Assembly: GCF_050320075.1 (NCBI RefSeq)
Contig: NZ_CP190018.1
Reading direction: 5' to 3' (one strand)
DNA: 64,000 nucleotides
Source of the DNA: Escherichia coli
GTDB lineage: Bacteria > Pseudomonadota > Gammaproteobacteria > Enterobacterales > Enterobacteriaceae
The first letter of the stretch is position 1; every line of letters starts with the position of its first letter. Shown here piece after piece: positions 2,722 to 39,369 of the stretch. Below the pieces are notes generated by a model that was not told where the DNA came from, ran no database searches, and worked only from the letters and a program-made list of their open reading frames with translations. A program made the translations under genes and the position numbers.

Positions 2722-3605
2722 GTGCTTATCTTATTAGGTTACCTGGTTGTTCTCGGTACAGTTTTCGGCGGTTATTTGATGACCGGTGGAAGCCTTGGAG
2801 CACTCTATCAACCCGCTGAACTGGTGATTATTGCCGGTGCAGGGATTGGGTCGTTTATCGTCGGCAATAATGGCAAAGCGATTAAAGGCACGCTGAAGGC
2901 GCTGCCGTTGCTGTTTCGTCGCTCCAAATACACCAAAGCAATGTATATGGATCTGCTGGCTCTGCTTTATCGGTTGATGGCGAAATCGCGGCAGATGGGG
3001 ATGTTTTCGCTGGAACGTGATATTGAAAATCCCCGTGAGAGCGAGATCTTCGCCAGCTACCCACGCATCCTTGCGGATAGCGTCATGCTTGATTTTATCG
3101 TCGATTATCTGCGTCTGATTATCAGCGGTCACATGAACACCTTCGAAATCGAAGCCCTGATGGATGAAGAGATTGAGACGCACGAAAGCGAGGCAGAAGT
3201 CCCGGCGAACAGTCTGGCGCTGGTCGGGGACTCACTTCCGGCGTTTGGTATTGTCGCTGCTGTGATGGGGGTCGTTCACGCGTTAGGTTCAGCCGATCGT
3301 CCTGCCGCCGAGCTGGGGGCGCTTATCGCACATGCGATGGTGGGGACTTTCCTCGGTATTTTATTGGCTTACGGATTTATTTCCCCATTAGCGAGTGTTT
3401 TACGTCAGAAAAGCGCCGAAACCAGCAAAATGATGCAGTGCGTCAAAGTCACACTGCTTTCTAATCTGAACGGTTACGCACCGCCTATCGCCGTTGAGTT
3501 TGGTCGCAAAACGCTCTATTCCAGCGAACGTCCGTCGTTTATTGAACTGGAAGAGCATGTGCGTGCGGTGAAAAATCCGCAACAACAGACGACAACCGAG
3601 GAAGC

Positions 3606-19853: not shown

Positions 19854-20609
<756 letters not shown>

Positions 20610-20655
20610 TTTTTACCGTTGCATCATGTCGCCCAATATGATGCTTGCTCGTACC

Positions 20656-20688
20656 AGGCCCCTGCAATTTCAACAGGGGCCTTTTTTT
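20656..20688 (+). terminator. Intrinsic terminator after cutC
   Basis: AGGCCCCTG (20656-20664) pairs with CAGGGGCCT (20674-20682), followed by T7. Confidence 0.85.
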
Positions 20689-26783: not shown

Positions 26784-27140
26784 TCAGAAAAGAGAAGATT
26801 GCTGTGGAATAGCCGGAACTGCTCCGATCTCTGGAAGCGTTTTACGTAAGTCTTCCCACAGGGTATGTACCAGTTCCGGGGCCTGGGCAATATCTGGCGT
26901 ATGTAAAAAAAGATAAGGCGTAGTGGTCTGATGCCACTGCGCTAATTTTTGTAACCAGACCTGAAATAATTCCCGGTTTTGCGTCATATCATCACTACCG
27001 ATAAAACGGATCAGCGGATTTGTCGCCGTCAGTACAGCATGTACCGGAACTTTAGGTTTTTTTCGTTGAGCGTCGCGAATAGCTTCACTGTGTGGACGTG
27101 CTGCATGAACCGGGCGGCTGTCTAAAATCATCAAGGTCTA
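26784..27140 (-). pseudogene. yecE: yecE (DUF72) C-terminal fragment, separated from its N-terminal part by the 12.2-kb insertion
   Basis: ..ILDSRPVHAARPHSEAIRDAQRKKPKVPVHAVL..PQQSSLF continues exactly from the fragment ending ..GVNRVI at 39363-39841. Confidence 0.9.
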
Positions 27141-27157
27141 AATGCACTACATGGGCA
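27125..27157. other. attL (attB left half / AAAATCA core / attP right arm GTCTAAATGCAC)
   Basis: Chromosomal CTGTCT + AAAATCA + element TCAAGGTCTAAATGCAC. See the att reconstruction finding. Confidence 0.75.
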
Positions 27158-27193
27158 CCTAAACATATACATGTGATGTTGAGGTGTTAGAAA

Positions 27194-27209
27194 GGGGGCT
27201 GTTCAGCCC
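27194..27209 (-). terminator. Hairpin downstream of the 306-aa gene
   Basis: GGGGCTG (27194-27200) pairs with CAGCCCC (27203-27209). On the minus strand it is followed by CTTTCT. Confidence 0.5.
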
Positions 27210-27218
27210 CTGATAGAC

Positions 27219-28139
27219 TTAGTAATTATCCCTGACAACTTCATCATATCTTTCAATGAAGGTTAGTTGTTTATTACTTCCATTATAACTATCAACCCAT
27301 TTGTCTACAGCTTCATCGAATAGAAATAAAAAATCCGTATAATTTATATACACTACATTATCATAATATTGGGTTGGGTGACCTCTTTTACATACAGCAA
27401 TACTAAGACGTCTTTCTTTACCCTGAGTAACTTTGTGTGAATTAAGATTAGTCATGTGAAGCAATGAGTTCCTTAATTCATATAATTCGTCGGAAGTTAC
27501 TCCAAGTTTTTGTATATCTGAGTATGTATCTAACCAATTTTGAAAGACTCTTCTTTTGTTTCCAAACTCAATATAAGCTATAGTATCAATAAATGACATT
27601 AATAGCTTGAAGCTTGACAAGTAATGTTTTTTGTTAAACAGAAGCTTTATTGGTTCCATATGGTCATCATTAAGAAGTTCCTTAATGTGAAAACCATCAT
27701 CTTTCATATACTTATCAAGATAGTCTGGCAAGTCTTTTACACCTTCAATGTGATAGTTAGGTGTGTGCTTATTCCTTAATTGCTCTGACATTGATAACTG
27801 AATATCATATTGTAATTTGCCTTTAACAACGGGGGTGACTATAGCTAAAGGGTTTTCAGGTGCATTTTGAGCTTCTAATGCTAATTCAAACGGAGCAAAA
27901 GGATTACCAATCCGCAAATTTGCATTATATCTTTCAAGTGTCAATTTGTCATTTTCTAAAACAGAAGGGTGTATCCCATAAAATAAACGACAAGAAGCTA
28001 AGTCAATCTCCAAATTCCGCTTTAAAAAATCTAATTTTTGCGCATCATCGCCATCATGTTCGTGAGGTACTATTCCGGCATGTGTGATATGAACTCCATC
28101 AGGACTAAAGCAAAATATGTTGTAGATAATCTCTTTCAT
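27219..28139 (-). CDS. Hypothetical accessory protein with a C-terminal HEPN-like RNSLLH (Rx4H) motif; possible Abi-type RNase
   Basis: 306-aa ORF, very AT-rich, at the element edge. R223-N-S-L-L-H228 is encoded at 27456-27473, within a helical C-terminal half. The N-terminus has a His/Asp cluster, HITHAGIVPHEHDGDD. Confidence 0.35.
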   Translation of the reverse strand: MKEIIYNIFCFSPDGVHITHAGIVPHEHDGDDAQKLDFLKRNLEIDLASCRLFYGIHPSVLENDKLTLERYNANLRIGNPFAPFELALEAQNAPENPLAIVTPVVKGKLQYDIQLSMSEQLRNKHTPNYHIEGVKDLPDYLDKYMKDDGFHIKELLNDDHMEPIKLLFNKKHYLSSFKLLMSFIDTIAYIEFGNKRRVFQNWLDTYSDIQKLGVTSDELYELRNSLLHMTNLNSHKVTQGKERRLSIAVCKRGHPTQYYDNVVYINYTDFLFLFDEAVDKWVDSYNGSNKQLTFIERYDEVVRDNY

Positions 28140-28400
28140 ACCATTCTAACCTTCAGTGAAAATAAAGTTTTAACTATCATTAGATTATGAACAATCACAA
28201 TTGGCCTGTAAATAACAGGGCATAAACAGGTTCGTTTAGCTTGATTTTATCACTATAACTGTCTGATTTAACGGTAACTCACCAAGTATACACACAGTAA
28301 TTACACAATCCTGTTATTATGTAACTTATTGAAATATATAAATAATTTTTACATTCTTTGTTTGGGGTAAGCTGTGTAATGTTAGTCGTCCCTCTCCAGA

Positions 28401-28444
28401 CACTATATATAGTGCTATATACAGGACTATATAACGATATATAG
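28401..28444. repeat. CTATATA box array (12-bp period), including the 14-bp palindrome CACTATATATAGTG
   Basis: CTATATA at 28403, 28415 and 28427, plus an inverted copy at 28438-28444. Palindrome at 28401-28414. Confidence 0.7.
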
Positions 28445-28742
28445 ATGTTTGGTCACATGGTATAACTATCAAACCACTTAACGATTTCCTACGTGAAAGT
28501 TAGAAAGTGATAGTTATAGTTACCTTGTCAAATCTTCGTAGTCCCTTCTTAAAAAATCGTGAAAGGTAATCTTGTTATCTATACAGAATCTACGTAGATG
28601 CTTCTTAGTGCGCAAAACAGCTATTATGTTAAAAACGCACTGTATACGTATCAGTACTGATTTATAAGGGTTTTGTGTATTGGCTGATAAGAGGCTATAC
28701 AGCACCTTGAGAGCATGTCTTCTAAGTCATTGACATATAAGG

Positions 28743-28820
28743 TCACAGAAGTTTGTAGCTGTTACAGAGAAAACTGGATAGGACTTCACAGAACTATAAA
28801 ATGTTACAGCTATTGATAGG
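28743..28820 (+). repeat. Two tandem 43-bp units TCACAGAA..GTTACAG..GATAGG
   Basis: TCACAGAA at 28743 and 28786; GTTACAG at 28761 and 28803; GATAGG at 28777 and 28815. Confidence 0.65.
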
Positions 28821-28832
28821 TGAAATCTTCTT

Positions 28833-29050
28833 GATAGATGCTTTGAAGTGTGGTGAAGGCTTTTTGAGGTGGGGCTAAACAGATATCATGAAGAAAGTCA
28901 ATAGTTGATTCGGTTTATCGAATAAACCTCATAGATATTTTAAAATTCTGCAAAGGGGGTCACATAGCTGGTGTGACGGGTACTTAGCAGCTACAGACAT
29001 CTATCAGATATTTTTGAAGATTTTTAGAAGGGGAATTTGAAGAGGGGCTA
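28833..29050 (+). repeat. Two ~45-bp degenerate direct repeats ending in TTTGARGWGGGGCTA, 172 bp apart
   Basis: Copies at 28833-28877 and 29005-29050 align over TTTGAAG..GAAGG..TTTGA(G/A)G(T/A)GGGGCTA. Confidence 0.6.
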
Positions 29051-29249
29051 CTACGATTTTATAAAAATTTTCAGATTCTGAAAAGTTACTGTACAGAATA
29101 TGTACAGATATCTTTAAAGTATCTGTAAAAACTTTTAAGATAAAAGATAGATATCCCAGAAAGGATATCCGTTTAGAAAACCTATTAAGTATCTCTTAAA
29201 AGAGAGTAAACCTTGTCAAGAGTGATTGCAATAAAAATTTTTATTTCTT

Positions 29250-29912
29250 ATGTCAATTGAGTGTATTTTAATCGGGAAACATCATGGGGGTTCTGATTAC
29301 TGGAGAACTCCATTTTTGTTATTTAAGAACTTACACCGTGAATTTATTTTCAGTCTGGATGGTGCTGCAACTAAGCACGATACGTTATTACCCCGCTTTA
29401 CGGATGATATTCACAATCAGTCATGGGATGGTGAACGGGTATTCTGTAACCCACCATACAGCGACACTAAAACATTCCTCGTAAAAGCGTCTGAGGCAGA
29501 TTTATCGGTATTCCTGATACCGTACCGACCCCAAACCATATACTGGCTTAAGCACATCTTCACAAACCCGCTTTGCCATGAAATCCGTATTCTTCATCGT
29601 GCAGTTAAATACCTTCCACCAGCAGGGCATAACAGGCTTACTATTAGGTCGCCGTTTCCAAGTGCAGTCGTTGTTTTTAAAAAAGAACCACGCAGGCATG
29701 AAATTACGCAGATGGTTTGCTGTGCTGATACATTGCTACCGTTAACCATCATTAACAGAGGAGGCTTGAGAGGAAGGCCCACCATTTACCCACCTGAGAC
29801 GCTCGACAGCTTCATAAAACTATACAGGCAAGGCAAACCCATTAAGTGCATTGCAGATGCTCTCAGAATGCCTCTGAGCACGTCATACAGGATTGCTCAA
29901 AGGTTGAGCTAG
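29250..29912 (+). CDS. Phage Dam-family N6-adenine DNA methyltransferase with a C-terminal HTH extension
   Basis: GSDYWRTPFLLF..FSLDGAAT..W.GERVFCNPPYSD matches the phage N6A-MTase family (DxWxTP, LDxAA, NPPY). Residues ~170-220 (GRPTIYPPETLDSFIKLYRQGKPIKCIADALRMPLSTSYRIAQRL) look like a resolvase-type HTH. Confidence 0.75.
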   Translation: MSIECILIGKHHGGSDYWRTPFLLFKNLHREFIFSLDGAATKHDTLLPRFTDDIHNQSWDGERVFCNPPYSDTKTFLVKASEADLSVFLIPYRPQTIYWLKHIFTNPLCHEIRILHRAVKYLPPAGHNRLTIRSPFPSAVVVFKKEPRRHEITQMVCCADTLLPLTIINRGGLRGRPTIYPPETLDSFIKLYRQGKPIKCIADALRMPLSTSYRIAQRLS

Positions 29913-30016
29913 AATTCTCATAAATATGGTCATTTACAAGACAGGTGATTTAGATATTAAGAGGTATCCCTGTGAACAATAAATGACCAATCAGTAATTA
30001 TCCTGTGAAATAATTG

Positions 30017-30045
30017 TTGCAATTTATAATCACACATGGTATAGT
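30017..30045 (+). promoter_or_regulatory. Sigma-70 promoter with extended -10
   Basis: TTGCAA (30017-30022), 17 nt spacer containing TGg, then TATAGT (30040-30045). Confidence 0.6.
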
Positions 30046-30052
30046 TTCATAG

Positions 30053-30255
30053 TGGACTGATAAAAAAGTTCATGTCTTGAAGTGGTAACACTTGGGGAGG
30101 TGTCAGATGATTGACGTATATTAACCTCTCATTCATGGTAATACCTCAGCGTTTTAATCATCGTACTGTTTCAGGCATGGACTTCTTTATCAGTCCATCA
30201 ATCCCCCAGATATTTTAATCACACAGGCTAATCGGTTTTATCCGGTTGGCCTTTT
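30053..30255 (+). ncRNA. Structured ~200-nt leader or small RNA ending in an intrinsic terminator just upstream of rep
   Basis: 22-nt closing helix 30053-30074 / 30176-30197 (20 WC pairs, 1 GU, 1 AC). GNRA hairpin at 30080-30093. Hairpin at 30095-30130. Terminator stem 30226-30235 / 30242-30251 followed by TTTT. Confidence 0.5.
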
Positions 30256-30276
30256 CACGTATGAGGTAATTTATGA

Positions 30277-31245
30277 ATGAAAAAAGAAACTAATGCTTTT
30301 ATTATGGTAGATAAACGAGTTGCACAATTCCCTAAAACATTAAAGCCAATTGACCGCTTGGTATATTTCACTATGCTGGATGGTGCTGATTATTACGAAT
30401 CTAAGTTCGGGAGATACGCACCAAGTATTGACTATTTGATGGTTATGTCTGGTGCTACACGTAATACAGTTATTGATTCACTTAAGAGACTTGAGTCACA
30501 CAGACTTATCGAAAAGACCAATGTAAAGGGTCAGCAAAGTATTTTTAAAGTATTCACGTTGGATGAGCGTCCAGAGGTCTTATCAGAACCTACCCTTGAT
30601 GAGCGTCGTAGAGCTAAATTATCAGGTCAACCAGAATCTGACAGTAACCCAACCAAAAATTGGTTACCTACCCAACCAGAATTTGGTTACCTACCTAACC
30701 AGAATTTGGTTACATGTAATACTGAATATAAAGACAAAAATATAAATACTGAAGAAGAAAGACTAAAAGGGAACTTTGAAGAAGAATCTCTTAAGAAGGG
30801 AGCTTCGCTCTGTGATTCACATGAATGTGATATTAAAGAAGATGACTTTCTTTCTTTGGATGAATTAAATGATTTTCTCTCTATGAATGAATCTGGCCTT
30901 GATAGTGAAGCTACTAAAGAGGCTGTTAAAAAGGAAGATAAAATCTCTGATGTGAATATCGATAGTGACCATAAAAACACACAGTGCCCCGCCACTGATG
31001 ATGAGATGGACCCCTTCGATGATTACCTTGATGAAGAGTCAGAGCGTGAAAAAGCCATTAAGAGGGTAGAGAAGAAAAAGAGATTCGAGCTTGCAAGACA
31101 AAAGAACAAAGTATCGGGTTTAGACCCATTCGATGACAGTGACGATGATGACTTTTCTTTCACACCAAGAAAGAAACAAACTCAGGATGACAAGAAGCAA
31201 AAAATTAAACCGAAGATGTATTTTGCTGGTGGAGGTATGCGCTAA
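30277..31245 (+). CDS. Replication initiator (N-terminal winged-HTH, acidic C-terminal tail)
   Basis: 322 aa. The N-terminus ..IDRLVYFTMLDGADYY..YLMVMSGATRNTVIDSLKRLESHRLIEK.. resembles HTH_36-type Rep or lambda-O-like initiators. Iterons lie inside the ORF. SD GAGGT at 30263-30267. Confidence 0.55.
   Translation: MKKETNAFIMVDKRVAQFPKTLKPIDRLVYFTMLDGADYYESKFGRYAPSIDYLMVMSGATRNTVIDSLKRLESHRLIEKTNVKGQQSIFKVFTLDERPEVLSEPTLDERRRAKLSGQPESDSNPTKNWLPTQPEFGYLPNQNLVTCNTEYKDKNINTEEERLKGNFEEESLKKGASLCDSHECDIKEDDFLSLDELNDFLSMNESGLDSEATKEAVKKEDKISDVNIDSDHKNTQCPATDDEMDPFDDYLDEESEREKAIKRVEKKKRFELARQKNKVSGLDPFDDSDDDDFSFTPRKKQTQDDKKQKIKPKMYFAGGGMR
30629..30719 (+). repeat. Iteron array (candidate ori): three 23-bp units plus one degenerate unit, each with an AACCAnAAnTTGGTT palindrome, followed by an AT-rich tract
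   Basis: Units start at 30651, 30674 and 30697 (AACCA(A/G)AATTTGGTTACCTACC). Degenerate unit at 30629-30650. AT-rich tract at 30715-30760. Confidence 0.65.
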
Positions 31246-31541
31246 TGAAAGAATATCACGGTGAAAAGAGATACAAAGATTACCTGTTAAAGCGTTATAG
31301 CATTTCTCGTGAAGGCCACTTAATGAAGGATACTCACGGGGAAGTTTACCGGATTAGACCGAAGAAAGAAGGGAGGGATTATTTCTTTTACGATGGTGTG
31401 ACAGATTTAAAGATTGATGCTTTGAAGTTTGCGGCGCTGTATCATTATGATATCTGGGACTCAGTCCACCAGCTACGATTAAAAGACGGTGACCCCGGTA
31501 ATCTGAGGGCCACCAATATTATCAAGGGAAAGTGCCGGTAA
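31245..31541 (+). CDS. Hypothetical 98-aa protein, weakly NUMOD4/HNH_3-like (degenerate)
   Basis: ATGA overlap with the rep stop; GGAGG SD. YSISREGHL.. and VHQLRLKDGDPGNLRATNI loosely recall homing-endonuclease-type DNA-binding modules. Confidence 0.3.
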   Translation: MKEYHGEKRYKDYLLKRYSISREGHLMKDTHGEVYRIRPKKEGRDYFFYDGVTDLKIDALKFAALYHYDIWDSVHQLRLKDGDPGNLRATNIIKGKCR

Positions 31542-31550
31542 GTCCACCAG

Positions 31551-31727
31551 CTATTTATTTATTGAAATCTCTATCTCAACACGAAGAAGTTTAAGTCGAA
31601 TTGTAAGCTTTGTCTTTTTTGTAATGACTCGATTCATAACGCAAAACACCAATAGCACAATAAATACCGCAAAGCCCAACGAGCTAAAACGATGAGATTC
31701 AATAATTGCTGTGAAAAAATCATGCAT
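31551..31727 (-). CDS. Small single-pass membrane protein (58 aa)
   Basis: MHDFFTAIIESHRFSSLGFAVFIVLLVFCVMNRVITKKTKLTIRLK... AAGGA SD 6 nt upstream. Own promoter at 31778-31806 on the minus strand. Confidence 0.45.
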   Translation of the reverse strand: MHDFFTAIIESHRFSSLGFAVFIVLLVFCVMNRVITKKTKLTIRLKLLRVEIEISINK

Positions 31728-31777
31728 TAATTTTCCTTTTGCGAAAGGAAACAGCACCTGTATCAGCCCCTATAACC

Positions 31778-31828
31778 ATAATATCATGTAAATGAGATGT
31801 TGACAATATGTTAAATAAATGTTATGAT
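31778..31828. promoter_or_regulatory. Back-to-back divergent sigma-70 promoters with overlapping -35 hexamers
   Basis: Plus strand: TTGACA (31800-31805), 17 nt, TATGAT (31823-31828). Minus strand: TTGTCA (complement of 31801-31806), 17 nt, TATTAT (complement of 31778-31783). Confidence 0.65.
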
Positions 31829-31864
31829 TGTAGTATGAGTAAGAGATTTAAGGAGATTTTTACA

Positions 31865-32155
31865 ATGACTCACACAGTTACGCGCCTTTTGCCAGAGGCA
31901 TTTGAACGACTGGCAGCAATCAAAGCCAAATATCCCGATATGAAGCACACAGCGCTTGTTGGAGAGCTTTTAAAAGAGTCGGTAACCCTGACCCCTTTCG
32001 ATAACGTTAAGGGCGTTGCAGAGGGTTCTAAGGCCATCAGAATCACAACGGACCAACTGGAACTACTCAAAGCACAGTCCGCAGTAGCAGGTTGCTCAAT
32101 GATTCAGGTGTTAAGCGCAAAGGTCCATCAATTAGCGGATAGGCTGGGGGTTTAA
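31865..32155 (+). CDS. Tandem ribbon-helix-helix (RHH) protein, candidate switch repressor
   Basis: 96 aa. Two strand-helix-helix patterns (TVTRLLPEAFERLAAIKAKY..HTALVGELLKES and AIRITTDQLELLKAQSAVAG.SMIQVLSAKVHQLADRL). AAGGAG SD at 31850-31855. Confidence 0.4.
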   Translation: MTHTVTRLLPEAFERLAAIKAKYPDMKHTALVGELLKESVTLTPFDNVKGVAEGSKAIRITTDQLELLKAQSAVAGCSMIQVLSAKVHQLADRLGV

Positions 32156-32580
32156 TGCTATGCACATTTGATTATCATGCGTTTTATCGCCATAGAGGCC
32201 ACCTTGTCCGTGAGAATAGCGGAACATGGAAAGATTTAACTCGTAATGCTGAACCCTTCACACACCAGCAATTAAAATCCCGCTTCTCCAGATGGAAGAA
32301 TGCACCAGCAGATACTGGTGATTTTGAGATTATCCATACCTTCGATTATGCCTCAGAAGATGACCTTCACGATGCAATTAAGCTGATTGAAGACTTCAAT
32401 ACCTCAGAAGATGTGGATGGTGACAAATATAAATCCCGTGGTAACCGCTATAACCGTGATGATATCACTCAGGCCATAAATGCTGGTCAATCTCAGCGAT
32501 ACATTACAGAAAAATATGGTATTTCACGGAGACAGTATTTCTACGTTAAATCATTGATTAATAAAGACAATTCAAAATAA
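32155..32580 (+). CDS. Hypothetical 141-aa protein with C-terminal HTH
   Basis: TAATG overlap with the upstream gene. The C-terminus DDITQAINAGQSQRYITEKYGISRRQYFYVKSL resembles a resolvase/terminase-small-type HTH. Confidence 0.4.
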   Translation: MLCTFDYHAFYRHRGHLVRENSGTWKDLTRNAEPFTHQQLKSRFSRWKNAPADTGDFEIIHTFDYASEDDLHDAIKLIEDFNTSEDVDGDKYKSRGNRYNRDDITQAINAGQSQRYITEKYGISRRQYFYVKSLINKDNSK

Positions 32581-32741
32581 CCATCTCAGTAACGGTAGAA
32601 TGCACTTTACAGGCAGAGTTGCACCTTAATTTGATAAATTACCTTACCAGCCAGTGCAACTCCCTCTGTAACCCGCATGATTACTGGTCTCAGAATGGCT
32701 ATTTTAAGAGGTCTGAGATGTGTTTTGTAGGAGATTTAAAA

Positions 32742-33065
32742 ATGAACAACTTCCCATTACAGATTTTCGTTGATAACGACACCGCTATGATGGTGCAAAG
32801 CTTCAGTGATGCAGGTATTAGCATTGATTTTGACAGGCTGTTAAAGCTAATGGCTGATAATGAAGAAAACGTCTCTGACTTTATTCACTCGGTGGAGTTT
32901 AACGAGCCTCGAATGATGTTACCAATTACAGACAGTAATATGAAAAGATTGGTTATTGAGCAAACGAACAAATACAGTATTTCCCCAGAGCAATTTTTGA
33001 AAGGTGCTGTGACAATCCTGTACAGCGATAATATTTTGGTTACGGATTCCGTGAGGGTTCACTAA
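32742..33065 (+). CDS. Hypothetical 107-aa protein
   Basis: ATG at 32742 preceded by GTAGGAG. The longer ORF-track start (32619) lies in a structured non-coding leader. Confidence 0.45.
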   Translation: MNNFPLQIFVDNDTAMMVQSFSDAGISIDFDRLLKLMADNEENVSDFIHSVEFNEPRMMLPITDSNMKRLVIEQTNKYSISPEQFLKGAVTILYSDNILVTDSVRVH

Positions 33066-33142
33066 TGGGCTTAATAATTGCTTGGACGTTGCTTGGCTTA
33101 TTTGTTGGTTGCTGGGTAGGCAGCACAGTAAATAGAAATTGA
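33065..33142 (+). CDS. Possible 25-aa hydrophobic peptide MGLIIAWTLLGLFVGCWVGSTVNRN
   Basis: TAATG stop-start overlap with the upstream ORF. GAGGG lies 7 nt upstream. One predicted TM helix. Confidence 0.3.
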   Translation: MGLIIAWTLLGLFVGCWVGSTVNRN

Positions 33143-33166
33143 TGTTACCAATCTGTTAAAAAGCTG

Positions 33167-33195
33167 TTGACAAATAACCTTAAGCATGAGATGAT
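33167..33195 (+). promoter_or_regulatory. Candidate promoter, paralogous to the 31800 promoter
   Basis: TGTTGACAA..17 nt..GATGAT, compared with TGTTGACAA..17 nt..TATGAT at 31798-31828. Confidence 0.4.
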
Positions 33196-33636
33196 GGTAA
33201 TAGGGGAGAGCAACTCTCTCTTATTTTTCTTTCAAAATAATCCGATGGATGGATATTCTGAATTGGAAAGGTGCAATGCTTTTCGTCATGGCCTTTCAGT
33301 TTAGTCTGAGAGGCTATCTCAAAAAGTGCTTAATCATTCATTGAACCCTTTACAGCTTTGCCCTAACTCATGATTAGGGCTTTCTTTAAGAGTTTTTAAA
33401 CAGAGCTTTTAAAGAAAGTTTTTCCTGAAACTTCGTTAACGTTAAAGCAAACCTTCAAAGCCCTTCACAGATGAGGATGATTCCATGAATATCCGAATCA
33501 CCTATGTTTAGGGCTTTTTTCAGCTTTTAAAAAGCATACTTGGCAAACGCCTTTTAAGCCTCTTCTAAGTTCGAGGATGTCAGGTGTGCTTTTTAAAAAC
33601 TGAAACATAAATTATCTTAGAAGAGGAAAGGTATTA

Positions 33637-34341
33637 ATGGCTATCCGTGATGAAAATGAAATGATTATTGAAAACAAACCAAGTGCACTTGATATTCACG
33701 AATTAAGTTTGCGTGAATCTTTTGATAGAGCTTGGCGGGAATCACACGAAGTAAATAAAGGTCCATATATTCCACCAGAACCACTCGAGATTCCAAGAGT
33801 TGAAATTGATTTTTCTATGAACGAACGGTGTGAACTTGATTTGAAGTTGAAGCTACAACGCCGATATTTCCAAGCTATTAAAGACTCTCAAGAAGCAATG
33901 AGAAGTGTTTATGAGAAAATTCAGTCCAAGCTTGAAGACGAAATTGACGAAATGGCTATTTTGATGGAGCTTCAAACCAATCCTTATGCTTATTTCTCTC
34001 GACTAGACCGTGACGGTTGGGGGTATGACCCTGTAGAGATTGGTAAAGTGATTGCAGATTTACCAGAAGGTCAAAGGGTTATTCGTACGGAAAGGGCCAT
34101 CAGAGCGCCACATCAACTGTCTCTAATTGTTGCTGATAAATCACAAGCTGAGCTTGAAGAAATTGCCAAAGAGAAACTGATGAAAGCAAGAGAAAATGAG
34201 ATTAATTTGCTGAAATCAAGACTGGCTAAGCTGATTAGTGACCATCAAGCGCTGGCTAAGGAGTACCGTCAAGAGTTGGCACAGATTATCAGCTTCAATG
34301 ATTTTCTGAGTGTTCCACGAGAATTTAGCAAGGCTGTTTGA
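33637..34341 (+). CDS. Hypothetical 234-aa coiled-coil-rich protein
   Basis: Good SD (GAGGAAAGG). Charged heptad-like C-terminal third. No family recognised. Confidence 0.5.
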   Translation: MAIRDENEMIIENKPSALDIHELSLRESFDRAWRESHEVNKGPYIPPEPLEIPRVEIDFSMNERCELDLKLKLQRRYFQAIKDSQEAMRSVYEKIQSKLEDEIDEMAILMELQTNPYAYFSRLDRDGWGYDPVEIGKVIADLPEGQRVIRTERAIRAPHQLSLIVADKSQAELEEIAKEKLMKARENEINLLKSRLAKLISDHQALAKEYRQELAQIISFNDFLSVPREFSKAV

Positions 34342-34364
34342 TTATGAATTAAAAGAGGTGATTA

Positions 34365-34583
34365 ATGTATGAAGACCGTTTGGAAACTATCAAGGCAGTT
34401 TGTGAAAAACTTAAAAACCAACCACGTAAACCAAAAACGGTAAAGAGTAAGCATCAGCCTGTCACCTCAAACAGCAAAATAAAGATTCGCAAAATTCCTT
34501 CGTGGTGCATTGACCGTATTCCGGTTGGTTCAAGAATTATTCGTGAAGATGGTGATTATCATTGGGTATCAGTTGTTGGTTAG
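34365..34583 (+). CDS. Hypothetical 72-aa basic protein
   Basis: AAGAGGTG SD. No family recognised. Confidence 0.45.
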   Translation: MYEDRLETIKAVCEKLKNQPRKPKTVKSKHQPVTSNSKIKIRKIPSWCIDRIPVGSRIIREDGDYHWVSVVG

Positions 34584-34598
34584 TTAGTAAAAATCTAC

Positions 34599-34638
34599 GG
34601 GAGAGATTATCGAGTGATATCGGTAGCTCTCCCTTTTT
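34599..34638 (+). terminator. Intrinsic terminator immediately upstream of the tape-measure gene
   Basis: GGGAGAG (34599-34605) pairs with CTCTCCC (34627-34633), with an inner helix, followed by TTTTT. Confidence 0.7.
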
Positions 34639-34671
34639 CGTATATGAACACTTAAGAGGTGAAAAATATGA

Positions 34672-36804
34672 ATGAGCAAATTCACAGTTGATAGTTTTAT
34701 CGTTGAATTAAGCTTCAATGAAAACATTATTAAGGGCTTGCAAAGAGTTGAAAAGGCAGCTTTGCAGTCAGCACAAAGAATTGAAAAGAACCTAAATAAA
34801 GGTTTCAGGATTAATACAAAGCAGCTTGATAGTAATTTAACGGCTTCTTTAGGGCAGCTTGAAAGGAAGTTTAATAAGGCCTTTGACAAGATTGAACAGA
34901 GAGCAAGAAATACTAAAGCTTTCCAGTTTACCACCAGATTTAATGACACTGTTAATCCTCCAAAACAACCGAGACAGCCACGAATTAGCGGCAACAGAGC
35001 AATCACAGCAGCTTACTCAGCGAATATGAGCAAGCTAAAAGGCTTTGACCCTATTTTGCAGAAATACATCAAATCTCAGTTTTACGGGCTATCTGCTAAA
35101 GCCGGTTCAATGGATTCTTCAAAATTCAATGAGAAGTTAGCTCAGTTAAACGCTTCAGTCAGAGAAGCAATTGCTAAAGCCAGAGGTCATACATCCACCA
35201 GCATTAATGGTGACAGAGCAGCTAATAGTCTTGATAACCTGTCTTCAGCAGCAGTTAAAACAGCAGGTGCATTTATCTCAATGCAGGCTGTATTAGCCAG
35301 TTATCAGAAGATTATGGAAATTGGTTTACAGCGTGCAAGTGCTGAACGTTCAATTGATTTCGTATTTGATAAAGATGCAGGTCAAGTAAAAGAGTTCACA
35401 AAGTCATTAGCTCAAACAACGGGTTTAGATATCGCTGAACTGCAATCACAGTTTGCTGGTTTTGGTGCTTCAGCTAAAGAGTCTATGGGCATTCAAGGTT
35501 CTGAAGAACTTTTTAAAAATATGATTGGCTATGCTCGTCTGATGGGGAGAAGTGAAGAAGAGATTAAGCGAGCACTGACAGCATTATCACAGATGGCTGG
35601 TAAGGGTCAGGTTATGGCTGAAGAGCTTAAGGGGCAATTAGCTGAAGCTGTTCCTGGTATGGTTCAGGTATTCGCTAAAGCAACCGGAAGGAATGAACAA
35701 GAGCTATTTGATGCCATGAAGAAGGGGGCTTTAAAATCTGCCGATACTCTTCAGAAGGTCACTCAGGAACTGAATAAACAAATCACCGCTAAAGGTGGCT
35801 GGAAAGCTATTTCAGAAAGTACACAGGCACAACTAGGGAACCTGAAAAACTCTTGGAATACCACGCTTGATAGTATCTTCAGAGGTTCTGAAGATGGTCT
35901 GCAAGATTTTACAAGAAGCTTAACAACGCTTTTAAACGCTCTTGGTGGAAGTGGTAAAAGTCTTGGTGAATCTCTTGGTAGTCTCATGACTTCTATGTCA
36001 CATGGTGTCGATTCATTGACTGATATCAGCTACAGGGTAAGAGCATTCTTCGATGAGGTGACATTAGCTTACCGTTCACTAAATGACACTCAGAAAAAAA
36101 TTGTTGATGGTTTATCTGATGGGTTAATTGATGGTTTGAAGATGCTTGCCGTAGCTGTTACTGCTCAAAAGGCTGCAAATGTAGCTGGAGGCTTGTTAAA
36201 CCTTGCAAATGCTGTTACTTCATTCGGTGATGCTGTTAATAAAGCTAAAGCTGGCAAGGCTGGTTCTTCAGGTGGTGCGCTAAATAAAGTTGGTAGAGTT
36301 GTTCTTTATGCTGAGTTGGTGAACTTTGCTCTTGATAATTTAAACCCTGAAGCGGCTAAGAATCCGAACTTACACCAATCAGGTATTGGAACAGAGACAA
36401 ACTTCAACCCTGAATACAAAGGCGATTCATCTAAACCAAACCAAATTAATGATGGATGGGCTAAGATTGGTAGTTCTATCGCTGACTGGTTTAATGGTGC
36501 GGCTAATAAAATTGCTAACTTCCAAGACCCGATGAATAACTTTGTTAATAACACACAATCAACTCCACCAGCTATCACAGGTGACATGGTTAATAGCAAT
36601 GCTCAACTTGCTATGGCTGTATCAGAGTTAGGAAGAAAGGTAGACGCTTTAACAGTAGAAGCTAAGAAGCCTTTATCAGTTAATATCAAAGGTGAAGCAA
36701 TTGTTAGACCGGATGAACCAGCTTTCTTTACTTTCAATCAATCAGCTAATGACCAGTTCACGCAGGATATGCTCTTAAGTTCAAGCTATCCAGAGGAAGA
36801 ATGA
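34672..36804 (+). CDS. Phage tail tape measure protein
   Basis: 710 aa. The segment ..RALTALSQMAGKGQVMAEELKGQLAEAVPGMVQVFAKATGRNEQELFDAMKKGALKS.. matches the conserved tape-measure core (lambda-type tape_meas domain). Long helical, Gly/Ala-rich remainder. Confidence 0.8.
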   Translation: MSKFTVDSFIVELSFNENIIKGLQRVEKAALQSAQRIEKNLNKGFRINTKQLDSNLTASLGQLERKFNKAFDKIEQRARNTKAFQFTTRFNDTVNPPKQPRQPRISGNRAITAAYSANMSKLKGFDPILQKYIKSQFYGLSAKAGSMDSSKFNEKLAQLNASVREAIAKARGHTSTSINGDRAANSLDNLSSAAVKTAGAFISMQAVLASYQKIMEIGLQRASAERSIDFVFDKDAGQVKEFTKSLAQTTGLDIAELQSQFAGFGASAKESMGIQGSEELFKNMIGYARLMGRSEEEIKRALTALSQMAGKGQVMAEELKGQLAEAVPGMVQVFAKATGRNEQELFDAMKKGALKSADTLQKVTQELNKQITAKGGWKAISESTQAQLGNLKNSWNTTLDSIFRGSEDGLQDFTRSLTTLLNALGGSGKSLGESLGSLMTSMSHGVDSLTDISYRVRAFFDEVTLAYRSLNDTQKKIVDGLSDGLIDGLKMLAVAVTAQKAANVAGGLLNLANAVTSFGDAVNKAKAGKAGSSGGALNKVGRVVLYAELVNFALDNLNPEAAKNPNLHQSGIGTETNFNPEYKGDSSKPNQINDGWAKIGSSIADWFNGAANKIANFQDPMNNFVNNTQSTPPAITGDMVNSNAQLAMAVSELGRKVDALTVEAKKPLSVNIKGEAIVRPDEPAFFTFNQSANDQFTQDMLLSSSYPEEE

Positions 36805-36967
36805 TTTCTTATATATCCGTGTGCTACGTGATTTCTTCTGAACAGATATACCCACTAAAAATTATTTTTTACGTAGCTCACGCTTAACAGAGAAAATACT
36901 TATATATCAAAGGCTTGGTTAAAAATGATTAAAATACACTAAGCCTTTGAAATCAAAGGAGAATTTA

Positions 36968-37741
36968 ATGATTTACTCTAATCAGATTCGTTACAGTGGT
37001 AAAGATGGCGTTTACTTTCATCTACAAGGCCAGCCAGATAATTTCTTGTCACTATCAGCTACTGAGAACATGGAATTTGACAGCCCTATGATGGTTACCA
37101 CTCAAAATATGCAATCAGGGCAGACTGTCACAGATAATGTAATGCGTTCACCCAGAACTATTTCAATCAGTGGTGTGGTTGTAGTTGGTGAATCCGGTAG
37201 TATCCTTATCTCAAGAGATAATAAGCTGGTGGAAAACTTCATAGACACTCTTGAAAACTGGCGTGACCAGAAGCAAATTATCTCAGTTGTCTGTAAAGAT
37301 GGTATTAAGATTGACGACTCAATTATTACAAACTTTAAAGCCTCTAAAGATGTTGGTATTGCCAATGGTCTTAGAATCCAATTAACTTTTCAGGAAATTA
37401 ACTTTAAAGCTATTGTGGGTCAGACTGATATCTCGGCTGCGACCGGAAGGACTTCTACCACAAGTGATGGTGGTGCTACCAGTAAAAAGAATACAGGGAA
37501 CACTACGACAAGCTTAGGTAACGGTATGTTGATGTGTCAGGAGCTATATAATCGCTCTACGAGTGAACTTACTAATGAGCAACTTCAAGCCCGTATCAAT
37601 TGTGGTAAAAATGTCAGAGTTAAGAACGGAAAAAGCACCTTCTCAGATGCCGCTAATGAGCAAGCTTCAAAGGTGCTTAATAATGCTGGTACAGGTAGTA
37701 CTTTGAAGAAGTATTCTGTTAATCCTAACAAGCGATACTGA
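36968..37741 (+). CDS. Tail-tip or distal-tail-like protein (family usually encoded just after tape-measure genes)
   Basis: 257 aa from [14 protein letters not shown].. (AAGGAG SD at 36956). The pattern [30 protein letters not shown] .. [12 protein letters not shown] resembles Dit-like tail proteins. Confidence 0.4.
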
Positions 37742-37755
37742 CGATAGAATCTCAA

Positions 37756-39279
37756 CTATATGATAACCTCATCAACATCTATTAAACCCCTCTCAGTGAC
37801 TTCAGAAAGCGACTGTATAGCCTCTGTAACGTTGTCTGAGGGGTTTTCTGTTATTGGTAAGGTGATTGCTTTACCGTTGTGAAAAGTTACTTTACAGCGA
37901 CGTTTAGCAGTATTTAAAACGACCTCTTTAACAGCACTTTTGATTATCAGTTGTGCTTCAATCCTTCCCGCCTTTGTAGTCAAGTCACAATCAGACAAAC
38001 AACCCACATCAATAGATTTAAGGCGTTGTGTCTCCTTCTCGATATCCGCATCAACTTGTGATAGCTCATTCTTTAGTTGTCTTAGTTTGCTGGTAATAGC
38101 GGACAAGTCTTCAATTTCAAGTGATAGCTGTACCAGCTTTTCAATATTGCTTGAGATGTGTTCACGGTGTAGCTTCAGTGTGTCTATGGTATTCGTCATA
38201 TCGCTATCAAATCGGTCAAGACGAGATAGCAGGGCAAGCAATGTACCATCGGTTTGCTTACGTGAAAGTCCTTTAGCACTACAACGGTTTTCATTACGAA
38301 GAGGACAACGATAAATCCCGTTTCTTGTATCGCTAAAGCCTGTGATAATCAAAGCATGACCACATTCAGAACAACGGATAACACCTTTGAAAAGATTCAC
38401 AGCCATTGGCTTATCTGAAGCAGGTTTTCTACCGTAACGAGCATATGATAGTTGTTGAACTTTGTAGAATGTTGTTTCATCTATAATTGCAGGATAATAA
38501 CCAGATATCTCCTCACAGCCTTTAGGTGTGAAGTAACCAATTACAGAGCGATTCTTCAAAAGGTCTTGCACTGAGGTTTGACCAAACTTACCTGCTTTGT
38601 ACTGGTTAAGCGTCTGGTGACCTTCAGCATTAAGAGTTCTGACAATCTCCCAGATAGACTTACCCTCTAACCGTAGCTGAAAGCACCTCTTCACAGTCTC
38701 CACTTTCTCAGGTATCACAGAGAAGCTTTTACGGTCATCATTAAGCTTAAGCCATGCAGGACAACGCCTAGAAATCTTGATACCAGCTTTAGCAGCTTCT
38801 TTCTTTGCATCCCATGCAGCTTGTATACGCTCAGCCTTACGTAATGATTCCTCATGCGCCCTTTGCATTATCAAAATGCTTTTAATCAGAGCTAACGGGT
38901 CTTTAAGAGATTCCCTTGTGTAATGTTCACCATCGGACAGGGTGACTACATCTACACCAGAGCGAAGAATGTTTCTGAGTAGCTCACTTGCTTGGTCTAC
39001 GTCCTGACGTGAGAGACGGTCTAAACTCTCGATTAGTAGTGTATCACCAGCTTTAACAAGCCCTTTCTCGATAGCGGTTAAAAAGTCACCTAAGCCACCT
39101 TTCAAGTGCTTACCAGTGAACCCGCTAACGCCTAAATCACGAAAAGTAAGGGATTCATCCAGATAGTACTCAGGATGAGCCTTAAGCCAATCAGTGACCA
39201 TCTTAGCCTGTCGTCTTAATGAGTCGCCTCTGGATTGCTTCTCAGATGAAAACCGGATGTAACTGATTGCACGTTTCAT
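37756..39279 (-). CDS. Large serine recombinase (integrase)
   Basis: 507 aa. N-terminal resolvase catalytic domain (AISYIRFSSEKQSRGDSLRRQ), recombinase domain, Cys-rich zinc ribbon (CSECGH..YRCP..C), and C-terminal coiled coil. Confidence 0.9.
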   Translation of the reverse strand: MKRAISYIRFSSEKQSRGDSLRRQAKMVTDWLKAHPEYYLDESLTFRDLGVSGFTGKHLKGGLGDFLTAIEKGLVKAGDTLLIESLDRLSRQDVDQASELLRNILRSGVDVVTLSDGEHYTRESLKDPLALIKSILIMQRAHEESLRKAERIQAAWDAKKEAAKAGIKISRRCPAWLKLNDDRKSFSVIPEKVETVKRCFQLRLEGKSIWEIVRTLNAEGHQTLNQYKAGKFGQTSVQDLLKNRSVIGYFTPKGCEEISGYYPAIIDETTFYKVQQLSYARYGRKPASDKPMAVNLFKGVIRCSECGHALIITGFSDTRNGIYRCPLRNENRCSAKGLSRKQTDGTLLALLSRLDRFDSDMTNTIDTLKLHREHISSNIEKLVQLSLEIEDLSAITSKLRQLKNELSQVDADIEKETQRLKSIDVGCLSDCDLTTKAGRIEAQLIIKSAVKEVVLNTAKRRCKVTFHNGKAITLPITENPSDNVTEAIQSLSEVTERGLIDVDEVII

Positions 39280-39340
39280 TGTTCACCTCACCAATAGCAG
39301 TTGGGCTTGTACCAACCCCTAGATTGTATCGCTTTAGATG

Positions 39341-39369
39341 GTGTATTTAAACGTGTCTAATAAAAATCA
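39341..39369. other. attR (attP left arm GTGTATTTAAAC / AAAATCA core / attB right half follows)
   Basis: Element GTGTATTTAAACGTGTCTAAT + AAAATCA, then chromosomal CCCGATTAACG. Confidence 0.75.

Follow-up and report, generated by a model that had tools for sequence, protein, structure and literature searches.

A conserved leader RNA that most likely restrains the replication of a small chromosomal island in Escherichia coli

This work deals with the leader of rep, the replication gene of a small island inserted in the chromosome of Escherichia coli; the island lies within a stretch of DNA of 64 kilobases (kb), which was analysed at its full length and is called the window below. Comparison of the leader with its homologues suggests that a conserved RNA of ~205 nucleotides (nt), encoded on the same strand as rep, most likely throttles the island's own replication. 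Judging by its pattern of substitutions, the leader is a selected plus-strand RNA that represents a new family by both sequence and structure, and the tip of its fold is complementary to the region where rep translation starts. On balance we favour, with somewhat more confidence than doubt, a leader-derived, same-strand, antisense-like RNA that would repress rep translation. All coordinates are those of the window and, unless stated otherwise, refer to its plus strand.

The structured leader RNA and its conservation

The predicted RNA extends from the base of a long helix (P1) to the U-tract of a terminator-type hairpin (30052-30256, both ends being predicted). When folded on the plus strand, this segment gave -74.4 kcal/mol with a z-score of -8.2, and none of the 200 shuffled sequences folded as well, whereas the minus strand of the same segment folded more weakly (-55.4 kcal/mol, z -3.8). 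The arms at 30053-30077 and 30173-30197 form a 25-nt inverted repeat with 88% complementarity, thus confirming the long helix that an earlier note, made from the sequence, had placed at 30053-30074 with 30176-30197. In the whole window, we found only four inverted repeats of at least 20 nt with arms no more than 200 nt apart, and three of them are inside the island. All the features in the earlier note were present at the positions it gave or within one or two bases. Its general picture of a promoter-driven, structured plus-strand RNA that begins at the foot of the long helix, with a terminator-type hairpin just ahead of the rep ribosome-binding site (RBS), gained support from the comparison of homologues described below.

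The 364-nt intergenic region was matched in about 155 of the 5426 complete E. coli genomes (~3%), always on the chromosome and in at most two copies per genome. The islands occupy five or more chromosomal sites (yecE, next to yciI, mdtG, ymdF, and the Flag-2 lafU region), and at all of these the RNA is directly upstream of rep. The leaders fall into three types, namely A (the window and its close relatives), B, and B' (e.g., strain NC101). Searches of phage and plasmid collections with the leader (BLASTN) and with Rep (TBLASTN) gave no match, and IMG/VR contained no true match either by the DNA pattern or by Rep. A profile search of genome contigs with the Rep alignment recovered a single Escherichia locus, and a pattern scan of metagenomes listed 120 stretches, about 17 of which were true homologues, all E. 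coli-like, the pattern with its 16 specified bases being too loose. The Rep family itself is very small, with 24 cluster representatives at an expectation value (E) <= 1e-3 among 1.84 billion. An Rfam 15 scan, as had been suggested earlier, was run with gathering thresholds over the whole window and with E <= 10 over 29700-30500, and it matched no relevant family, giving only spurious hits to Qrr and STnc420.

To describe the conserved fold, we applied RNAalifold to 11 sequences of types B and B', which resulted in a rod of 52 pairs, and built a covariance model on that rod. The model recovered and aligned all type A leaders at 69-77 bits. Covariation was counted over 18 distinct sequences of the three types aligned to the model. 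The results clearly showed that the rod helices are conserved across homologues with double-sided changes: 98.2% of the cells in the 52-pair rod were standard pairs, and 15 of the 52 pairs had changed on both sides. In a control where the 3' partner was slid by 1-3 columns, 35-44% of cells were paired and double changes appeared in 1-2 pairs only. G·U pairs made up 18% of the paired cells, such that pairing fell from 98% to 80% when the alignment was read on the minus strand, and the plus strand was more stable than the minus strand in 18 of 18 variants. The share of G·U cells and the greater stability of the plus strand therefore point to a selected plus-strand RNA, not to a DNA palindrome.

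The rod is built of four helical elements and an apical hairpin. P1 (30052-30075 with 30175-30198) comprises 23 base pairs (bp) and a conserved A·C mismatch at 30065/30185; seven of its 23 pairs showed double-sided changes, with 99.8% of cells paired. In P2 (30078-30086 with 30165-30173; 7 bp), double-sided changes were found in four of the seven pairs, and all cells (100%) were paired. Hairpin H (30088-30103) has the stem ACACU/GGUGU (30088-30092 with 30099-30103) and the loop UGGGGA (30093-30098), and it was also paired in 100% of cells, with one double-sided and one single-sided change. P3 (30106-30117 with 30151-30162; 12 pairs) followed with double-sided changes in three of 12 pairs and 96.8% of cells paired. 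The apical hairpin (30119-30143) has the stem UAUUA.CC / GG UAAUA and a 10-nt loop at 30127-30136 (UCUCAUUCAU), and it was present in both the minimum free energy (MFE) and ensemble folds. Its stem sequence is type-specific and its position is conserved.

The conserved rod (P1-P2-H-P3-apical hairpin) takes the place of the multi-branch domain proposed earlier. Of the two hairpins in that domain, the GNRA hairpin (30080-30093) is indeed in the sequence and forms in a fold just 4 kcal/mol above the MFE, but it is absent from the MFE fold itself and is not conserved in type B leaders. The 7-bp hairpin GGGAGGU/ACCUCUC retained its pairing potential in all 11 variants checked (7 of 7 pairs in nine variants and 6 of 7 in two, with one double-sided change), but it excludes the better-supported H and P3. 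A fold that contains both hairpins is only 4-6 kcal/mol above the MFE, and by this energy difference it may represent an alternative conformer.

The RNA is preceded by a sigma-70 promoter, TTGCAA-17-(TGg)TATAGT (30017-30045), which had been read in the sequence earlier and was recovered by our promoter scan. Its sequence match alone is weak, and promoter-like sites were not enriched in the region (5 found vs. 8.1 expected from shuffles), so the weight of this promoter comes from conservation: the -35 hexamer is invariant in all leader types, and all homologues share the 17-nt spacing and the promoter position. In the islands L003, L004, and L140, the upstream gene is divergent, and for this reason the conserved promoter is the only candidate for a rep promoter there. 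The promoter, the RNA, and rep are all on the plus strand without room for another promoter, as far as the predicted transcript goes.

At the other end of the RNA, the terminator-type hairpin GGCUAAUCGG-UUUUAU-CCGGUUGGCC followed by UUUU occupies 30226-30255 (stem 30226-30235/30242-30251, -15.5 kcal/mol), and its U-tract ends 7 nt before the Shine-Dalgarno (SD) sequence of rep. The 10-bp stem and the UUUU tail are thus present as previously described. The type A hairpin was not called by the consensus scan because its T-run is short (four T). Types B and B' bear hairpins of different sequence with longer T-runs at the equivalent position, and these were called by the scan; the promoter and the terminator position are thus conserved while the terminator sequence has been replaced between types.

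The earlier note had also considered an attenuator that gates rep. In the comparison of types A, B, and B', we found no conserved antiterminator pairing that would compete with the terminator stem: the best competitors of the terminator arms were weak or non-homologous between types (-4.5/-8.4 kcal/mol in A, -11.3/-14.5 in B, and -6.6/-6.6 in B'). A classical attenuator switch is therefore not supported. Known aptamer families gave no match in Rfam 15. A leader peptide was rejected as well; other type A variants lack the ATG (30135) that opens the longest open reading frame (ORF) of the leader (CATTCATGG to CATTCAGGG), and a reading of the sequences showed no relationship between the in-frame ORFs of type A and those of type B.

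Complementarity between the rod tip and the rep start region

The translation initiation region (TIR) of rep (30262-30280) comprises the SD sequence UGAGGUA and two AUGs, one out of frame at 30273 and that of rep at 30277. Two segments at the rod tip are complementary to it. The anti-start segment UCAUUCAU in the apical loop (30129-30136) matches AUGAAUGA at 30273-30280, which holds the rep AUG, and the anti-SD segment UACCUCA (30142-30148), whose CCUCA is in an internal loop, matches UGAGGUA at 30262-30268. In the ensemble fold, both the apical and the internal loop had an unpaired probability of about 0.9. The motifs listed in the earlier note, ACCTC at 30124-30128 and 30143-30147, GAGGT at 30097-30101, and the SD GAGGT at 30263-30267, are all where it had put them. 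Its idea of an SD complement in the RNA holds for the second ACCUC, which extends to UACCUCA and covaries with the SD between types, and not for the first ACCUC and the supposed 'decoy' GAGGU, which pair within the RNA and are not clearly regulatory.

The duplex between the apex and the TIR in the window was calculated at -23.7 kcal/mol, compared with -13.5 +/- 2.4 kcal/mol for dinucleotide shuffles of the RNA, none of the 500 shuffles reaching the observed value; after subtraction of the opening cost, the net energy was -16.5 kcal/mol. In five of five representatives of the three types, the homologous apex was the best site for the cognate start region (net -8.8 to -17.2 kcal/mol), and the other sites of these RNAs were mostly unfavourable, none being better than -8 kcal/mol. 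In types B and B', too, the equivalent part of the loop pairs across the AUG. When the starts of all 217 ORFs of the window with 60 or more amino acids (aa) were compared, rep ranked first as a partner of the RNA apex. The anti-SD/SD pair is UACCUCA/UGAGGUA in type A; types B and B' have UUUUCCUUU(U)/AAAAGGAAA(A) instead. Between types, the 7-bp core shows three double-sided changes, and 55 of 56 cells are paired.

Some further features of the loop and of the start region deserve mention. In type B, the apical loop that faces the start codon contains one to three ATTCA repeats (L002, L003, L137; alignment columns 84-95), with a varying copy number of the TTCA unit, which looks like slippage. 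Most relatives have two overlapping start codons at rep (in L004, at about 3278-3284), ATGAATG in types A and B' (30273-30279 in the window) and ATGTAATG or ATGCATTAATG in the distant relatives L145-L150 described below. The upstream one opens a mini-ORF of 1-6 codons, sometimes a bare start-stop, and the arrangement may serve translational coupling or re-initiation. The start region of the island tape-measure gene (34641-34684, AAGAGGUGAAAAAUAUGAAUGAG; start at 34672) has GAGGU-N8-AUGAAUGA in common with rep and ranked third of the 217 ORF starts as a partner of the RNA apex (-20.7 kcal/mol). The tape-measure start as a second conserved target was not supported, the match at the start codon not being kept in a type B island.

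Furthermore, we located Rep relatives at 35-45% identity (N-terminal domain) and compared their contigs. Six of these, Enterobacter hormaechei and five metagenome contigs (L145-L150), have 500-1000 nt without called genes upstream of rep. Each gap holds a sigma-70 promoter, a conserved 5' domain, and a rod of ~160 nt whose base helix is followed by T6-T10; the rod U-tract is separated by 63-84 nt from the SD AAGGAU and two overlapping start codons. The leaders of L145 and L146 were folded and gave z -5.3 each. In sequence, these leaders are unrelated to the window RNA, the covariance model giving only about 14 bits (E about 0.02). Nevertheless, the apical loop covaries with a segment just 5' of the SD (GUGUGAUGG/CCAUCACAC, GCGUGGUGG/CCACCACAC, and UGUUGGAAU/AUUCUCACA). 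The distant leaders thus resemble the window leader in having a promoter, a long rod, a U-tract, a short spacer, an SD, and two overlapping starts, as well as covariation between the loop and the TIR-proximal segment; they differ from it in an extra 5' domain of ~100 nt, in that the rod base itself is the terminator stem, and in a target just 5' of the SD. Since leaders of unrelated sequence share both the layout and the loop covariation, this Rep lineage seems to be characterised by such a layout together with complementarity between loop and TIR.

Proposed mode of action and rival explanations

We propose that the segment would serve as the 5' leader of the island replication operon and as a candidate small RNA (sRNA) at once. 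Transcription would start at ~30052 from the conserved promoter, and the first ~147 nt would fold into the long imperfect rod. The hairpin at 30226-30255 would stop part of the transcripts to give the ~205-nt RNA, and the remainder would read through into rep. The rod tip would expose the apical loop UCAUUCAU and the internal loop (U)ACCUCA as single strands, whose pairing with the rep SD and AUG would block binding of the 30S subunit and lower Rep synthesis; the read-through mRNA might pair with itself in this way, the terminated RNA might act on it in trans, or both. Lowered Rep synthesis would in turn limit the replication of the island from an iteron origin inside rep. Repression is expected because the pairing covers both the SD and the AUG, and since the regulator and its target share one promoter, the dose of the regulator would follow the copy number of the element, thereby creating negative feedback. 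From sequence and folding we infer the transcript ends, the partial termination, repression rather than activation, and the action in cis or in trans.

Several points weigh against this model. Both ends of the transcript and the efficiency of termination are predictions, and the type A terminator, with only four U, may be weak. Nearly all the double changes in the rod stem from one deep split (A vs. B/B') and thus amount to few independent events, and the structural alignment was itself fitted to the covariance model; polymorphisms within the types provide independent support, as with few exceptions they keep the pairing via G·U wobbles. The mini-alignment of the anti-SD with the SD was made by hand. 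Moreover, as the SD is located just 7 nt beyond the terminator U-tract, simple linkage could explain why it is inherited together with the RNA type, and so mimic covariation. The statistics of the complementarity are uneven: in type B, the duplex energy was no better than that of shuffles (p about 0.2), with p about 0.02 for its 10-nt perfect match, and in types A and B' the longest perfect match was unremarkable (p about 0.14). Duplex energies across types do not cleanly split cognate from non-cognate pairs, nor is the corresponding matrix clean for the leaders of the distant relatives. Finally, pairing in cis would be a pseudoknot across P1-P3.

The main rival is a purely cis-acting leader, in which the rod would be a stability or processing element (an RNase III site) or a pause/termination structure, and its complementarity to rep would be incidental. 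RNase III sites are known in the lambda N leader and in the early mRNAs of T7, and a helix of at least 23 bp extended by P2 is the kind of substrate this enzyme is established to use. The conserved A·C mismatch and the internal loops resemble processing signals, and the weak statistics for types B and B' fit an incidental match, SD- and anti-SD-like motifs being common in AT-rich leaders. We nevertheless consider this account unlikely, given that the apex is kept single-stranded and is the best TIR partner in all types, that the anti-SD covaries with the SD and rep comes first among the 217 ORF starts, and that loop/TIR covariation is also seen in the unrelated-sequence leaders of the distant relatives. 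It seems rather improbable that the RNA is a free trans-acting sRNA with its main targets elsewhere (other island genes, the host, or a helper phage) and with the rep TIR as a minor target at most. The layout is that of a stand-alone sRNA, with its own promoter, a 5' end at the stem, and an A/U-rich stretch followed by a terminator hairpin; the third-ranked tape-measure start shares the bipartite motif of rep, and a conserved CCUCU(U/C) motif matches the AAGAGG SDs of the late genes of the island. However, the tape-measure match does not covary in a type B island, of the partners only the rep SD changes along with the RNA type, and the RNA is always directly upstream of rep at five or more insertion sites.

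An RNA that acts on the polymerase or binds a protein, for instance by put- or EAR-like antitermination or as a decoy for, or sensor of, a protein of the island or a helper phage, and so decides on read-through of the terminator, would agree with a promoter-proximal, highly structured element with a terminator immediately after it. The distant relatives show the same architecture, and their T6-T10 terminators must be overcome for rep to be expressed. Still, no such Rfam family matched and no conserved antiterminator pairing was found, and the loop/TIR covariation would be left unexplained, which makes this possibility highly improbable in our view. Hardly credible is a DNA-level element (a cruciform, recombination site, origin, or small inverted-repeat transposon) instead of an RNA. 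A 25-nt inverted repeat does exist in the DNA, and the covariance model also scores the reverse strand of type B at 36-49 bits; but the 18% of G·U cells would be A·C mismatches on the other strand, which accounts for the drop in pairing described above, and every single-sided substitution keeps a wobble pair. In addition, the iterons are inside rep, and no genome has more than two copies, each of them upstream of rep.

The repression of rep by its leader may be taken one step further, to an immunity or incompatibility determinant of the island: a free ~205-nt RNA-only repressor that would silence rep of islands with the same leader type, resident or incoming. We regard this extension as doubtful. 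If true, types A, B, and B' with their diverged apex/TIR pairs would mark specificity groups within a hitherto undescribed family of satellite-like E. coli islands with tail genes (tape measure and Dit), and a helper phage would relieve the repression by antitermination or by titration of the RNA, thereby switching replication on. The comparison of co-resident islands by leader type covered a single genome, E. coli 2013C-4830, which is too little to judge exclusion based on type. This strain carries two islands of types A and B (L141, L142); in its A copy, the -10 has decayed to TGTATT and rep is frameshifted.

If leader-mediated repression of rep is correct, it would give a testable control point for the replication of small islands that are uncharacterised as far as could be found, and it would bring a new, well-supported family of structured RNAs that Rfam 15 does not contain. 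The matched apex/TIR variants would represent natural orthogonal RNA-target pairs, usable for studies of specificity or for building regulators.

Island setting and comparison with known systems

The window belongs to the cutC-yecE region of the E. coli chromosome, where it was placed by two known sRNAs detected in the Rfam scan, MicL (20381-20688, inside cutC) and C0465 (7045-7122). The island of ~12 kb (about 27135-39346) splits yecE (DUF72), and the yecE halves flank the island in an identical annotated genome. The island genes encode a 306-aa protein to which no function was assigned, a Dam-like methyltransferase that ends in a resolvase-type helix-turn-helix (HTH_7; dam, 29250-29912), Rep (30277-31245, 322 aa; HTH_36, with matches to PHROG replication-initiation families including the lambda O type), several small proteins without assigned function, a tape-measure protein, a Dit-like tail protein, and a large serine recombinase of 507 aa. 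No recognised capsid, terminase, or portal gene was found among the island genes at 27135-39346. The island looks like a phage satellite or a tail-hijacking element, undescribed as far as could be found. A retron msr-msd RNA was rejected as an identity for the leader: none of the island proteins scanned has a reverse transcriptase domain, so there is no adjacent reverse transcriptase gene, and the 322-aa protein downstream is an HTH_36/O-like initiator.

Inside rep, at 30647-30715 (also 30628-30640), are three 23-bp iterons in tandem (ACCCAACCAAAAATTGGTTACCT), all of which contain a palindrome. Since they sit within the gene, in an arrangement like that of lambda O, the origin of the island is most likely there, and an origin in the leader was rejected.

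Upstream of the promoter, the two TATCC(C)TGTGAA(C)AATAA boxes noted earlier are real (29965-29982 and 29999-30013). The distal TATCCCTGTGAACAATAA box (29965-29982), as read in the sequence, occurs only where dam is upstream, and it is replaced by a GTTTGATT...AATCAAAC palindrome in the islands with a divergent upstream gene. The proximal box, read together with the palindrome AATTAT-N8-ATAATT that abuts the -35 (29996-30015), is conserved in types A and B and replaced in type B'; by its sequence it is a putative operator-like element. The boxes and the palindrome beside the -35 could be binding sites of the Dam-like methyltransferase with its terminal helix-turn-helix. In many sister islands, a small serine recombinase is encoded upstream. 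A 10-nt repeat, TAATCACACA, reported in the promoter spacer and again before the terminator, is real in the window but is not kept in type B'.

Elsewhere in the island, the 1.1-kb AT-rich stretch between the 306-aa gene and dam (28140-29250) has no convincing ORF. A second gap, 33066-33636, comprises 570 nt without an ORF and bears a TTGACA promoter-like site at ~33168, several units of a hairpin with a T-run, and AATCATTCATTGAA, a sequence similar to the loop motif of the rep leader. At 33518-33605, a hairpin whose arms span 28 nt (fold z -4.8) ends just 5' of the RBS of the ORF that starts at 33637. A 21-nt inverted repeat (36899-36958) overlaps the start of the Dit-like ORF.

Among known systems, the plasmid counter-transcripts (R1 CopA, ColE2 RNAI, IncB/IncI Inc RNA, and the pT181 ctRNAs) follow the logic proposed for the island RNA: they are dosage-proportional RNAs whose loops pair with the rep leader or TIR and limit the synthesis of the initiator. 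The loop of the island RNA has a UUCA (YUNR-like) motif. They differ in coming from the strand opposite their targets, to which they are complementary over the full length, whereas the island RNA is on the same strand and has a bipartite complementarity of about 15 nt. A counter-transcript was rejected for the island: the promoter scan found no promoter-like site on the minus strand in 29913-30276, the minus-strand fold was weaker in 18 of 18 variants, and the G·U pairs become A·C mismatches on that strand.

The C4 family (P1/P7 c4, P4 CI, N15 CA) is closer in its way of working. These RNAs control replication or anti-immunity functions of a phage, a plasmid-prophage, or a satellite without a protein repressor at that step; the mature RNA is about 70-80 nt long and is freed by RNase P or other processing, and P4 CI causes premature termination of transcription. 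As predicted for the island, the regulator is in the same-strand transcription unit of its target and uses short exposed segments to pair with the RBS region or with flanking sites. The differences are also clear: the island RNA is a rod of ~205 nt, its ends are predicted as a promoter start and a terminator hairpin and not as products of processing, and a block of rep translation is predicted instead of premature termination. The C4 antisense RNA model gave no match over the whole window or, at E <= 10, over 29700-30500. The analogy to P4 CI drawn in the earlier note is therefore apt as to the way of working and does not extend to membership in the C4/CI family.

The layout of one promoter that gives a short terminated RNA and a read-through mRNA, where the short form may act on the long one, is known from IsrK, Listeria SreA, and Sinorhizobium rnTrpL and would be shared by the island if the predicted termination and read-through take place. 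The IsrK-type order promoter-sRNA-terminator-type hairpin-ORF is present in the island and positionally conserved, with a tail of only four U in type A; the Rfam 15 model of IsrK did not match in the scans described above. IsrK activates the translation of the read-through mRNA, whereas the island RNA is expected to repress it, and in contrast to the terminated-leader sRNAs, no ligand-sensing or alternative terminator/antiterminator fold was found in the island leader.

Same-strand regulators within the transcription unit of their target have been described for P4 CI RNA (PMC4825925) and P1 c4 RNA (PMC8546580), and IsrK of Salmonella Gifsy-1 has terminated and read-through forms from one promoter (PMC4825925). 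Taken together, these analogies make it the best reading that the island RNA would work like P1 c4, P4 CI, and IsrK and yet belongs to none of those families. In other words, 'same-strand antisense' control, which so far has been known in P1, P4, and N15, would be extended to another RNA architecture and to a replication initiator.

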